DNA from: a virus
Taxonomy: Duplodnaviria > Heunggongvirae > Uroviricota > Caudoviricetes
IMG/VR virus record: IMGVR_UViG_2778261631_000002
DNA: 64,000 nucleotides
Direction: 5' to 3' (one strand)
Part shown: piece by piece, positions 28,264 through 31,785 of the stretch
How the letters are laid out: every line of letters starts with the position of its first letter
Numbering within the stretch: position 1 is the stretch's first letter
Notes under the pieces: model-generated
What the model was told of the DNA's origin: nothing
Seen by the model: only the letters and a program-made list of their open reading frames with translations
Database searches by the model: none
Position numbers and translations under genes: made by a program

Positions 28264-30518
28264 ATACCCAAAACGTCATGAGCTACACCTCGAGTGTCCC
28301 CCTTACAAGACACAGAACGTCTGGCAAAAAGAGGTTCCACTCTGAAGCCACTGTCATGATAAAGCTCTCTGATGTTTGGCGCGCCACTGTTAGTAATGAG
28401 AACCTTTGCACCTCGACGATGAGCATCCGTCAACAGAGACACCAGGCGTTTTTGCTCTTCAAACTTAAAGTCATGACCGGAATAGTTCGTGAATCCCTCT
28501 GTATTTGGAAGCGGTTCATACGGCGGATCGCAAAAGATGACATCTCCTTCTCCGGCAGCTTCAATCACCGCTGCAAAATCACCGCATACAAACTCAGACC
28601 GCCCTTCCGCACCGAGGAAGGCTTCCATCTCCTGTAATGGGAAATACGGAGTTTTATACTTCCCATAACCGACATTGAACTCACCGGCCTGGTTGTAACG
28701 CGTCAATCCGTTAAAACAATGTCGGTTCAGGAACAAAAACGCCGCTGCGCGATGTAAATCATCATAGACTTGTTTGTTAAACGCATTCCGTACTGCCAGG
28801 TATCCTTCCTGTGTGTTGTAGTCCTGGAAGAAACGATGTGCCAGAGTGATAAGTGAATGCGCCTCGCGTTGCAGAGTCTTGTAAAAGTTAATCAGGTCAG
28901 CATTCACATCATTTAGCAGATTTTCCTGGTATCCGGCATTCATGAAGACAGCTCCGCCACCAACGAAAGGTTCAATCAGGCGCTTCCCTTCTGGCAAATA
29001 GCGAAAGATTTGTTCCAGAACACCAAATTTTCCACCAGCCCATTTGAATATGGACCGTTCGAATTCTGCCGCTGGTTTAACTTTTCGCTCTTTTGTTTCA
29101 CTTCCTTCTTTCTGCCGACATACGGCCTTAGTAATCCGATCGCCAATCCAGCGCATTACTGGTATTGCCATACTATTGCCGATCGCTTTGTAACGCGGTC
29201 CGTCAGCTGCAAGCATCGCGGCCTCTTCTTCGCTTAAATCTGGATAGTGATTGCGAAGATATGCCAGTTCATCTGAATTAACTTTTTTACGCTTTTCCGT
29301 CGGGATCAACGTATGCCCATCAGGAAAACCTTGCAGCCTTTCACATTCGACAGGGGTAAGACGGCGGACAGCTACTTCTGCGTTTCTTACTTCATAGCAA
29401 ACAGCTGTTGGATTTTTAGCCATTAGAGATGGTGAAGTATTCTTAGTTGCAGCATGTTGTGTACCGCTCATACGCTCAGGAAAAGCCAATGTAACAAGAT
29501 GCTCATGGCTTTCTTGCTCACGTGCCCGCAATGTACCATGCCCTTCTGACCAAAAACCTGCTCCTGTGCTGCTAAAAACGGCAAGGTCAGTGGCATCTTT
29601 AAAATCTCTTGCCTTTACTGTCGATGCGGTTTCATCGTCAATATATTCCCCAAATGCCGCCATCCTGAAACCGTTTACGGCTTTCGTCGATTTCATACCG
29701 GGAGACATGCCAGCGTGTAGGCATGGATTTAGGCTTTCGCCACTGATTGCAGCGCCATTTGCAGTAATGGCGGAAGCGATTTCCTTCTTTTTTCGGCTCG
29801 GCGCAATATTCCGGCGCACGCCTTCGAACTCAAAAAGTACCGTTGCGGGATCGAGGTCTGTTCGAGCACTTGCGACAACAAACACGCGTCGGCGTCGTTG
29901 TGCCACTCCGAAGTATTGGGCATCAAGGATTCTCCAGGCCACCTTTCGCTGCGGTCCATAAATACAACCACACTGCGGCCACTTTGGAACATGGCAACCG
30001 GTTTTGCCATCCCACCGCCAGAACGCGTTGCTTTTTCCTGATTCAGGTCGATCACCTGGTTCAAATGGCACATCTTCTCCAGCCAATCCGGCAAGGAAAC
30101 ATCCGAAGGCGTTATCTGCGGATGACAAGACTCCTGGGACATTTTCCCAGACGATAACGGCTGGTTTGAGAAATGACTCAGCCCGTTTGTCGTCAATTGC
30201 ATTTGCAAGCTCCACATACTTTAAAGTTAGCGCGCCACGCTCATCATCAAGCCCACCACGTAAGCCCGCGATACTGAATGCCTGACAAGGTGTTCCCCCG
30301 ACGAGCACATCAGGGGATTCGATTTCCCCAGCCAGGACTTTTTTGGCAAGTTTTGTCATGTCGCCAAGGTTGGCGACATGGGGCCAGCGGTGCGCAAGAA
30401 CGGCAGATGGAAAAGACTCGATTTCAGCAAACCACACCGGACGCATACCCAACGGTTCCCAGGCAATACTCGCGGCTTCAATTCCACTGCAAACAGATCC
30501 ATAGCACAGCTCTTTCAC
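28254..30518 (-). CDS. dmt: Bifunctional DNA methyltransferase Dmt (N-terminal C5-cytosine, C-terminal N6-adenine)
   Basis: 754-aa ORF; PCQAFS and ENVPG motifs in the N-terminal half, FCDPPYEPL in the C-terminal half; length matches P1 Dmt. Confidence 0.8.
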
Positions 30519-31420
30519 TGCTTAGCCTCTCCACCAAGGGCATTTACCAGAGCATCAACCAGGCACGAAATTTCACTGGTCAACAGGAAGAAATCTGCGT
30601 CCAGTCGCTGCGCAACATCTTCACTATCAATATCAGAGTTCTGCTCAAGCAATTCATCCGCAAATTTGACGCTGGTAAGGCTGAAGTTATGGTCCAGTGT
30701 AAATTTAATGCGGTTCTGCCAGTCGAGTGCCAACTTAGTGACGAGCTTGCCAGCTTCCAGGTGTGTGGAAATTTCATCGCTTCCCAAATCCTGCTTTTTC
30801 ACTCGGGCAATACCGCCATCCTCAAGCACTGCCTTAAGTTCTGCCGCATCCCCCATTTGAAATCCCTGTGGAGCACTACCATCACGTACCCAGTCGGTCA
30901 GCGTTAACTCAATGGGATTTTCAACACTTAGGGGAACAACAGGAAGAGAACCCAGAGATTTACGCATAAGCGCGAGCATATCCTCTGCCTGCCGCGCGCT
31001 GGCATTGATATAGATACGTTTAGTTGAACCGTCGTAGATCGCCTGGATAACAGAAAACTTTGAAAAAGCCCGTGGCAGAAGAGAATGCAGAACTTCGTCT
31101 TTCAGGGAGTCCTTCTCTGTTTTCTTCAGTTTACGCGCTTGTTCTTGCTCAAGTTTTTCAATTTTTTCTTGAATAGCTCGCTGGATAACCGGCGGGGGAA
31201 GAATTTTTGTTTCGCGCTTTGCTTCAACAAGGATAAAACCATTTCCATGCATAGCGATAACTTCGGAATTATCACCAAATGGCGATACAAAACCGAACTT
31301 GGCCATATCCTGACTACCGCATGGTGTGAAAAGGATCATTTTCTTTTTATCTTCTAAGTCGGTCAGATCCGCCTCACGAGAAAGTTTATAAATAGTAATA
31401 TTTTTCCAGTGCTTAAACAT
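30515..31420 (-). CDS. rdgC: Recombination-associated protein RdgC homologue
   Basis: About 301 aa from the internal Met ([16 protein letters not shown]) with RBS AAGGG; full-length similarity to RdgC as recalled. Confidence 0.75.
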
Positions 31421-31769
31421 GTTGTAACCCTTGAATATCAACCACAGAAAGCTCGTCTTTATAGAAAAAGGCCAAGTTGTGGCACCCCCTCGTTTGAGCG
31501 TATGAGCTGGGACCAATTTCGTTCTTCCAGACAAATGGCTTCAAATCCGTACGGCGAAGCATAAAAACGCGATTTGTTCCGCTCTGATTCCCAATGAGGC
31601 AAAAGCCTTCTTTCACCTTGATAGCCTGCAAGTTGTCGAGTTCACCGCTGGTTACACGGCTATCGAACTCCTTGCGGCTTATTAGCTCCATCTGCATCTG
31701 ACGACTCCAAACAAATGCCCATTGAAGGGCGATGGCTGAATGGTACCGAAAACACGATATAAAAAACAA
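31413..31769 (-). CDS. Hypothetical protein, first ORF of the rdgC-dmt operon
   Basis: 118-aa ORF beginning at the operator; overlaps the rdgC start in another frame. Confidence 0.3.
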
Positions 31770-31785
31770 TATTTATTAGAGCAAT
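31769..31785 (-). promoter_or_regulatory. C1 operator-like 17-mer (16/17)
   Basis: Plus strand ATATTTATTAGAGCAAT between the divergent operons at 31769 (minus) and 31867 (plus). Confidence 0.55.

Follow-up and report, generated by a model that had tools for sequence, protein, structure and literature searches.

HrdC, an RdgC-family protein of the C1-controlled uhr-hrdC-dmt operon of P1-type phage-plasmids, as a probable accessory restraint on RecA

The 64,000-nucleotide stretch of viral DNA analysed here (the window) belongs to a P1-type phage-plasmid and carries its uhr-hrdC-dmt operon, which had been annotated before. The middle one of the three cistrons encodes a full-length relative of the bacterial DNA-binding protein RdgC. 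HrdC is probably an accessory protein, made early under the control of the C1 repressor, which would form an RdgC-like ring on P1 DNA and limit the action of RecA there while the methyltransferase Dmt modifies the same molecules. The evidence for this reading comes from the family membership of HrdC, from the architecture of the operon and from its conservation in distant relatives of P1.

The operon and its control

The identification of uhr, hrdC, dmt, Pdmt and Odmt (the former Op68) is based on the GenBank annotation of P1 (AF234172 / NC_005856). Phage P1 records match the region at 98.2-98.9 % identity. The window comes from a resident P1-like plasmid-prophage of E. coli, its positions 20000-44000 being 100 % identical to a 93.5-kb E. 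coli plasmid, NZ_CP074369.1. Compared with P1 itself only strain-level nucleotide differences are found (98.2 % identity over 1.9 kb), while Odmt/Op68, the Pdmt hexamers, the gene order and the codon overlaps are all identical. The HrdC protein (for "homologue of RdgC") is the product of the same gene, with a single differing residue (N/K at position 236); HrdC of P7 is likewise among the closest known systems.

Table 1. Features of the uhr-hrdC-dmt operon and its boundaries in the window
Feature	Position	Strand	Remarks
C1 operator Odmt (former Op68), ATTGCTCTAATAAATAT	31769..31785	-	1 mismatch to the consensus ATTGCTCTAATAAATTT; same as the annotated P1 operator
Promoter Pdmt	31740..31769	-	-35 TTGTTT (31769..31764), 18-nt spacer, -10 TACCAT (31745..31740); mapped from the P1 annotation
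uhr, 94 aa, first cistron	31413..31697	-	annotated in P1
hrdC, 301 aa, RdgC-family DNA-binding protein	30515..31420	-	matches to Pfam RdgC, PDB 2OWL and P1 HrdC
dmt, 754 aa, bifunctional C5-cytosine / N6-adenine (Dam-type) DNA methyltransferase	28254..30518	-	PF00145 and PF02086; TIGR00571 (dam) and TIGR00675 (dcm); P1 annotation
Bivalent C1 operator Oban ab with ban promoters (P1ban/P2ban)	28236..28263	both	overlaps the 3' end of dmt; downstream boundary of the operon

The three cistrons are tightly packed. The uhr stop and the hrdC start overlap within the 8-nt sequence ATGTTTAA, and the TGA stop of hrdC (30517..30515) shares the 4-nt sequence GTGA with the GTG start of dmt (30518..30516), as the first-pass annotation, which placed the RdgC homologue directly upstream of dmt, had noticed. 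Its assignment of dmt to a methyltransferase is confirmed by the C5-cytosine and D12 N6-adenine methylase domains that were found. It had also described a C1-operator-like site in front of the RdgC gene. The site exists, and its 17-mer is the same as Odmt/Op68, but it does not directly precede hrdC, since uhr lies between the two: the end of the operator is 71 nt from the uhr ATG and 348 nt from that of hrdC. The first cistron had escaped this earlier reading.

Odmt is an asymmetric 17-bp site that abuts Pdmt and shares one base with its -35 hexamer. C1-type sites are strongly over-represented in the window, with 11 occurrences at three mismatches or fewer against 0.39 expected by chance, and a C1-type 17-mer is found at the same position in four diverged relatives and, with an indel, in a fifth. 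The two promoter hexamers are those annotated for P1 Pdmt and match only 7 of the 12 consensus positions for sigma-70, a weakness which explains why Pdmt was not recovered by a simple consensus promoter scan. Pdmt would thus be a weak sigma-70 promoter, its activity being taken from the P1 annotation. At the other end, the two halves of Oban ab correspond to operator matches at 28236-28252 (+) and 28247-28263 (-), with Obanab and P1ban/P2ban both present in the P1 annotation.

Within the operon the minus strand shows no terminator-like site, the first one being located at 28073..28054, and an Rfam scan returned nothing there. Together with the cistron overlaps of 8 and 4 nt, which also suggest translational coupling, this terminator-free strand is consistent with co-transcription of hrdC and dmt. 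In published RNA-seq data for P1vir, hrdC and dmt change alike and are induced jointly. The earlier proposal of co-transcription from a C1-controlled promoter matches the curated P1 annotation, and operator, hexamers, overlaps and the lack of an internal terminator agree with it.

HrdC as a member of the RdgC family

The presence of a full-length RdgC homologue on the minus strand within 30515-31785, as first suggested from the sequence, is borne out by the alignments. HrdC matches Pfam PF04381 (RdgC) with an E-value of 5.7e-98 and 328 bits (cut-off 25) over profile positions 3-298 of 298. Its residues 6-301 align with residues 4-302 of E. coli RdgC (PDB 2OWL, E 3e-113), to which it is about 62 % identical, and it also matches Pseudomonas aeruginosa RdgC (2OWY, E 4.4e-66) and phrog_724 (E 4.2e-135). 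The E. coli and P. aeruginosa proteins are of the same family and length and can be aligned with HrdC from end to end; the charge composition of the E. coli protein is equal to that of HrdC (39 K+R, 47 D+E). Among the NCBIfam RdgC models, HrdC exceeds the cut-offs of the equivalog NF001462 (379 vs 330) and of NF001464 (289 vs 227) and stays below that of the best-matching equivalog, NF001460 (420 vs 501). The longest open reading frame would start at a TTG (31534, 339 aa). This start was rejected in favour of ATG 31420 because RdgC proteins align with the 301-aa form from residues 4-6 onwards, homologues measure 298-304 aa and P1 is annotated with this ATG.

Mutagenesis of E. coli RdgC has assigned functions to a small set of residues (PMC2965237). 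The basic fingertip formed by R97, K98, K100 and K101 is needed for loading onto circular DNA, while the dimer interfaces comprise R118 and F120 at the gate and Q212, E218, H222 and K227 at the horseshoe. All ten of these residues, in fingertip, gate and horseshoe alike, are kept in HrdC of the window, and they are invariant across the phage-plasmid clade except for one alignment gap at R97 in a single member (P0004). RdgC is known from published biochemistry to bind DNA non-specifically, to inhibit strand exchange, ATPase and LexA cleavage by RecA, and to counter RecFOR. From the conservation of its sequence, HrdC is predicted to form a ring-shaped dimer, to bind DNA non-specifically and to inhibit RecA.

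A fold of this kind can also serve another purpose. The lambda RexA protein, which binds DNA without sequence specificity, is built of two domains with a fold like that of RdgC (PMC11077077), and a survey of lambdoid phages proposed that RdgC homologues located beside cI may act like RexA (PMC12315714). It is thus conceivable, but in our judgement quite unlikely, that HrdC works as RexA does, excluding superinfecting phages or tilting the choice between lysis and lysogeny instead of controlling recombination. The relation between RexA and RdgC exists at the level of the fold only. No sequence similarity between RexA and HrdC can be detected, and RexA is devoid of the tip domain through which RdgC dimerises and which contributes to keeping the RdgC ring intact. 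The sequence of HrdC, in contrast, marks it as a genuine RdgC, with 62 % identity to 2OWL, a tip/finger domain and all ring-interface residues. The expression patterns are also opposite: RexA is made in the lysogen together with RexB, whereas hrdC lies behind a C1-repressed promoter and should accordingly be off in the lysogen. No RexB-like gene neighbours hrdC. On these grounds HrdC was not classified as a RexA-like exclusion protein. Neither HrdC nor Uhr was matched by PADLOC, so that membership in a defence system is unsupported.

Origin and selection

RdgC is generally regarded as a host protein, and the first-pass annotation had presented it in this way. This is only partly correct, as 444 of 50,697 phage records (about 0.9 %) encode a homologue. 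The other phage members, collected in PHROG 724 (Vibrio ICP1 and X29, Pseudomonas F116 and LKA5, Nonanavirus and others), are 20-59 % identical to HrdC. In a neighbour-joining tree HrdC falls into a clade separate from the chromosomal RdgCs; it is about 58-62 % identical to those of enterobacteria, which are at least 77 % identical among themselves. A recent capture of a host rdgC was discarded in view of this separate clade, the best host identity of 62 % and the score below the NF001460 cut-off. By its sequence, HrdC instead belongs to a deep and old clade restricted to phage-plasmids. Unlike that of chromosomal RdgC, its gene lies on a phage-plasmid, is controlled by a repressor and is accompanied by those for Uhr and a methylase.

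Could hrdC nevertheless be a dispensable passenger devoid of any selected function in the phage? A published CRISPRi screen found uhr, hrdC and dmt to be non-essential for lytic growth of P1, their knock-down causing no loss of plating. Moreover, some records of P1-like phages (673R5 and 813R1) have hrdC broken into two ORFs, so that these phages can do without it at least for a short time. Against this stands the pattern of substitution. Relative to P1, the gene differs by 7 synonymous changes and 1 non-synonymous change; dN/dS is 0.06-0.07 against relatives with 75-79 % identity and about 0.04-0.07 overall, with saturated synonymous sites. hrdC is thus under strong purifying selection, and it has been kept with all functional residues, at a conserved position in the operon, in a clade whose members have drifted apart to 62 % identity. 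A mere passenger is very unlikely.

Uhr and the methyltransferase as constant neighbours

The layout operator-uhr-hrdC-methyltransferase is maintained even in loci where HrdC is only 57-79 % identical. The first protein, Uhr, has no match in Pfam, NCBIfam or PADLOC. An exhaustive HMM search of 1.84 billion proteins with a Uhr profile recovered only 17 representatives and no remote annotated relatives. The more distant homologues that were traced to contigs all lie in P1-type contexts, and uhr is situated directly upstream of an RdgC homologue at every locus with a readable downstream gene. The AF2 model of Uhr is confident (pLDDT 88), with uninformative fold matches. As far as its sequence tells, Uhr is an orphan protein that occurs only together with HrdC. 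One could imagine that the two form a lineage-specific module in which Uhr would redirect or control the RdgC-type ring, perhaps by serving as its loader, as an inhibitor or as an adaptor for interaction with RecA, a proposal that we consider tentative and rather unlikely. If true, the ring of the phage-plasmid would do what host RdgC does not: with the methylases it might guard incoming or replicating plasmid-prophage DNA, or it might act against a host defence relying on RecA or on DNA ends.

The position of dmt raises the related possibility that HrdC and Uhr serve the methyltransferase. The ring, which Uhr might load or regulate, would then shield new or incoming P1 DNA from nucleases and restriction until Dmt has modified it, or would tether or assist Dmt. 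What speaks for this, besides the overlapping cistrons and the exclusive association of Uhr with HrdC, is that linkage to methyltransferase genes has been kept despite changing methylase content: one relative (L005) has a D12-only enzyme, another (L007) an extra N6_N4 methylase, and elsewhere C5+D12 fusions range from 708 to 979 aa. However, long stretches of P1-type genomes share their gene order, which makes a conserved neighbourhood weak evidence for joint function, and in several relatives hrdC and the methylase gene are separated by one or two further ORFs. No interaction between an RdgC and a methylase is known. A general linkage of the two in phages was not seen either in the two unrelated phages examined, AVIO78A and X29, where rdgC is found among early genes with neither a Uhr-like nor a methylase neighbour; in Vibrio phage X29 it lies beside replication, integrase and exonuclease genes. 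A role in the service of Dmt is therefore doubtful.

A probable role for HrdC

Of the readings considered, the most likely one is that HrdC acts as an RdgC-like ring on DNA and holds RecA in check soon after the operon is derepressed. In a lysogen, C1 would hold the operon off or at a low level, and loss of C1 activity, through infection or induction, would lead to the joint synthesis of Uhr, HrdC and Dmt as early proteins. HrdC would assemble into a toroidal dimer encircling duplex DNA irrespective of its sequence. Like host RdgC, it would limit RecA filament formation and strand exchange, including RecFOR-dependent loading and SOS signalling. Its target would be replicating or incoming P1 DNA, which Dmt would methylate in the meantime, and its role would be accessory and non-essential under laboratory conditions of lytic growth. 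Modulation of RecA or protection of replication intermediates, both of which had been suggested in the initial reading, are plausible and agree with the guess of the P1 annotators.

Two considerations may complicate this picture. P1 also encodes Ref, a RecA-dependent nuclease, and simple inhibition of RecA is thus not an obvious benefit for the phage. In addition, the activity or target of HrdC may differ from that of host RdgC, given an identity of about 60 %, a score below the NF001460 cut-off and the constant partner Uhr. The searchable literature yielded no experiment on HrdC itself, the functional data found being the non-essentiality by CRISPRi and the joint induction by RNA-seq.

The phage RdgC homologue and its operon have been known since the annotation of the P1 genome and do not constitute a new kind of element. 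What is added here is the phage-plasmid clade, the purifying selection, the conservation of the layout, the exclusive pairing of Uhr with HrdC and the frequency of RdgC in phage records. Although HrdC has been annotated for two decades, literature searches returned no functional test of a protein that is strongly conserved and resides in one operon with Uhr and a phage methylase across very divergent P1-type phage-plasmids. Knowing what HrdC does would help to explain how phage-plasmids deal with the RecA of their host when they are induced and while they are maintained as plasmids. It would also help to explain why rings of the RdgC type keep appearing among phages, similar genes being present in about 1 % of phage genomes.

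HrdC, an RdgC-family protein

The hrdC gene encodes a full-length RdgC homologue, as the first-pass annotation had proposed, and the similarity is beyond doubt. The protein matches Pfam PF04381 over the entire profile (E 5.7e-98), aligns over residues 6-301 with the E. coli RdgC structure 2OWL (E 3e-113) and also matches P. aeruginosa RdgC (2OWY, E 4.4e-66). It is ~62% identical to E. coli RdgC, differs from P1 HrdC at one residue, and scores above the cut-off of NCBIfam NF001462 and below that of NF001460, the best-matching NCBIfam RdgC equivalog model. Mutagenesis of RdgC has identified residues needed for function or DNA loading in the fingertip (R97, K98, K100, K101), the gate (R118, F120) and the horseshoe (Q212, E218, H222, K227) (Briggs et al. 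2010, PMC2965237). All ten are intact in the window protein and conserved in related phage-plasmid proteins, the sole exception being an alignment gap at R97 in one of them (P0004).

Organization of the uhr-hrdC-dmt operon

The window is a P1-type phage-plasmid: across 30100-32000 it shares 98.2-98.9% identity with phage P1 records and 96.8% with P7, and the E. coli plasmid NZ_CP074369.1 (93.5 kb) is 100% identical to window 20000-44000. The uhr stop overlaps the hrdC start in ATGTTTAA; the hrdC stop overlaps the dmt start in GTGA, the arrangement directly upstream of dmt that had been noticed initially. The span then assigned, 30515-31785, has the hrdC stop codon and the operator's outer end as its exact limits. 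The C1-operator-like site placed in front proved to be P1 Odmt itself, but uhr had been missed: it stands between promoter and hrdC and fills most of that gap, so that the hrdC ATG lies 348 nt from the operator end. The C1 operator consensus with <=3 mismatches occurs at 11 sites in the window versus 0.39 expected by chance; by the standard available here, the Odmt-type operator upstream of uhr is real.

Features of the operon, its surroundings and related loci
Feature	Coordinates	Strand	Remarks
C1 operator ATTGCTCTAATAAATAT	31785..31769	-	base-for-base identical to annotated P1 Odmt (formerly Op68)
-35 hexamer TTGTTT	31769..31764	-	
spacer between -35 and -10		-	18 nt
-10 hexamer TACCAT	31745..31740	-	
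uhr	31697..31413	-	94 aa
hrdC	31420..30515	-	301 aa
dmt	30518..28254	-	754 aa
bivalent ban operator	28236-28263		
terminator-like hairpin	28073..28054	-	
tRNA-Met-CAT	25712-25787	-	matches P1 tRNA gene
tRNA-Thr-TGT	27428-27503	-	matches P1 tRNA gene
tRNA-Asn-GTT	27506-27581	-	matches P1 tRNA gene
upfC	31867-32151	+	
sok antitoxin RNA	45105-45279	-	RF01794, 113.9 bits
C4 antisense RNA and a1/b1 target	48736-48942	-	RF01695, RF03163
extra-ORF region, L002	6027-7012		
extra-ORF region, L003	5989-6585		
extra-ORF region, L004	5903-6478		
extra-ORF region, L011	5903-6478		
extra-ORF region, L005	6005-7326		

hrdC and dmt are probably co-transcribed: the cistrons overlap, the minus strand has no terminator-like site within the operon before 28073, and both genes behave in parallel in RNA-seq. 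The initial observation is confirmed and its interpretation supported. Since the operon is annotated in P1, and likewise in P7 and many P1-like phages, the feature was already known and a catalogued operon has been found again.

The 3' end of dmt extends into the bivalent ban operator, its final codons overlapping this C1 site and both ban promoters. As no terminator lies between the dmt end and these elements, transcription from Pdmt could enter the ban operon. Further downstream, past the ban promoter region, come the three tRNA genes. The terminator-like hairpin falls inside the region that P1 annotates as dicF-like, where the Rfam DicF match stays below the gathering score.

The divergent neighbour upfC encodes a small PAAR-motif protein, so annotated in RCS47 and RefSeq, whose relatives give a faint Pfam PAAR match; such a gene is odd beside a plasmid replication region. 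Elsewhere, a full-length sok RNA points to a module of the hok/sok type on the P1-like plasmid, and the C4 RNA and its a1/b1 target of the P1 immI region are as expected of a P1-type element.

Conservation in related elements

Five diverged P1-type contigs, with HrdC at 62-79% identity, each encode a Uhr homologue of 94 aa whose gene overlaps the start of hrdC by 8 nt, and a C5/D12 methyltransferase follows immediately or past one or two extra ORFs. A C1-type 17-mer lies 64-80 nt 5' of uhr in four of the five, the fifth having an indel variant. The Uhr-RdgC-methylase order is retained even in two more distant elements (HrdC 57-59%, Uhr 22-24% identical). The C1 17-mer is absent upstream of the uhr homologue in the two most distant loci, L005 and L007; both carry there the motif ACACTAAACTTTT (~4630-4660 and ~3930-3960, respectively), which in L005 belongs to an inverted repeat, ACACTAA...TTAGTGT, and may be a candidate operator for a different repressor of these elements' own. 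This conserved linkage could mean that HrdC is functionally coupled to Dmt and Uhr, shielding DNA or assisting methylation, but it argues for this weakly because P1-type genomes are syntenic overall.

The extra ORFs between hrdC and the methyltransferase (one or two per diverged element, ~191-243 aa) are missing from the window and P1, and those of L002, L003, L004, L011 and L005 have no Pfam match. L007 carries an additional N6_N4 methylase instead.

The Uhr family is limited to P1-type elements, with uhr directly 5' of the RdgC homologue in every locus with a readable downstream gene. RefSeq P1/P7 records and PHROG 2213 label it "nucleoside triphosphate pyrophosphohydrolase", which looks like a propagated mis-annotation: Uhr has no match in Pfam, NCBIfam or PADLOC, and its AF2 model, though confident, gave no informative match in a fold search.

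Origin and selection

A search of 5.8 billion proteins returned graded HrdC homologues, 62-99% identical, on P1-sized contigs (87-105 kb), with chromosomal Enterobacterales RdgCs (~58-62%) ranking below them. The phage-plasmid proteins form a separate clade in a neighbour-joining tree, and identity is at least 77% among the host RdgCs of the set while the phage clade reaches down to 62%. Together with the score below the NF001460 cut-off, this makes HrdC, judged by sequence comparison, an old resident of the phage-plasmid lineage; recent capture from a host was rejected.

Window and P1 hrdC differ by seven synonymous changes and one non-synonymous change, and dN/dS is 0.06-0.07 against relatives at 75-79% identity, synonymous sites being saturated in more distant pairs. 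These substitution patterns demonstrate purifying selection on hrdC; together with its conservation, they contradict the view that it is a passenger gene without function.

A phage-borne RdgC is not in itself unusual: 444 of 50,697 phage records, chiefly of Vibrio, Pseudomonas and Klebsiella phages, contain a homologue. In both unrelated phages checked the gene lies among early genes, with no Uhr-like or methylase neighbour; in Vibrio phage X29 it adjoins replication, integrase and exonuclease genes.

Possible role of the operon

P1 plates equally well when uhr, hrdC or dmt is knocked down by CRISPRi, which, with the split hrdC of two P1-like phage records, argues against a major role. In these records, vB_EcoM-673R5 (L014, 716-1620) and vB_EcoM-813R1, the gene appears as two ORFs, RdgC1 and RdgC2, suggesting disruption in some lineages or sequencing frameshifts; PHROGs has one family per HrdC half (phrog_13439 and phrog_21369).

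HrdC is unlikely to act in exclusion or in a switch as RexA does, since by sequence it is a true RdgC and its gene lies behind a C1-repressed promoter; rexA, in contrast, is expressed in lysogens. According to the literature, RdgC forms a toroidal dimer with no sequence preference in DNA binding; it inhibits strand exchange and ATP hydrolysis by RecA as well as LexA cleavage, and opposes RecFOR-dependent RecA loading. In the most likely scenario, C1 would keep Pdmt down in the lysogen, and Uhr, HrdC and Dmt would be produced together as early proteins once the phage infects or is induced. HrdC rings loaded onto duplex DNA would then hold RecA back on intermediates of P1 replication or recombination, with Dmt methylating the DNA meanwhile.
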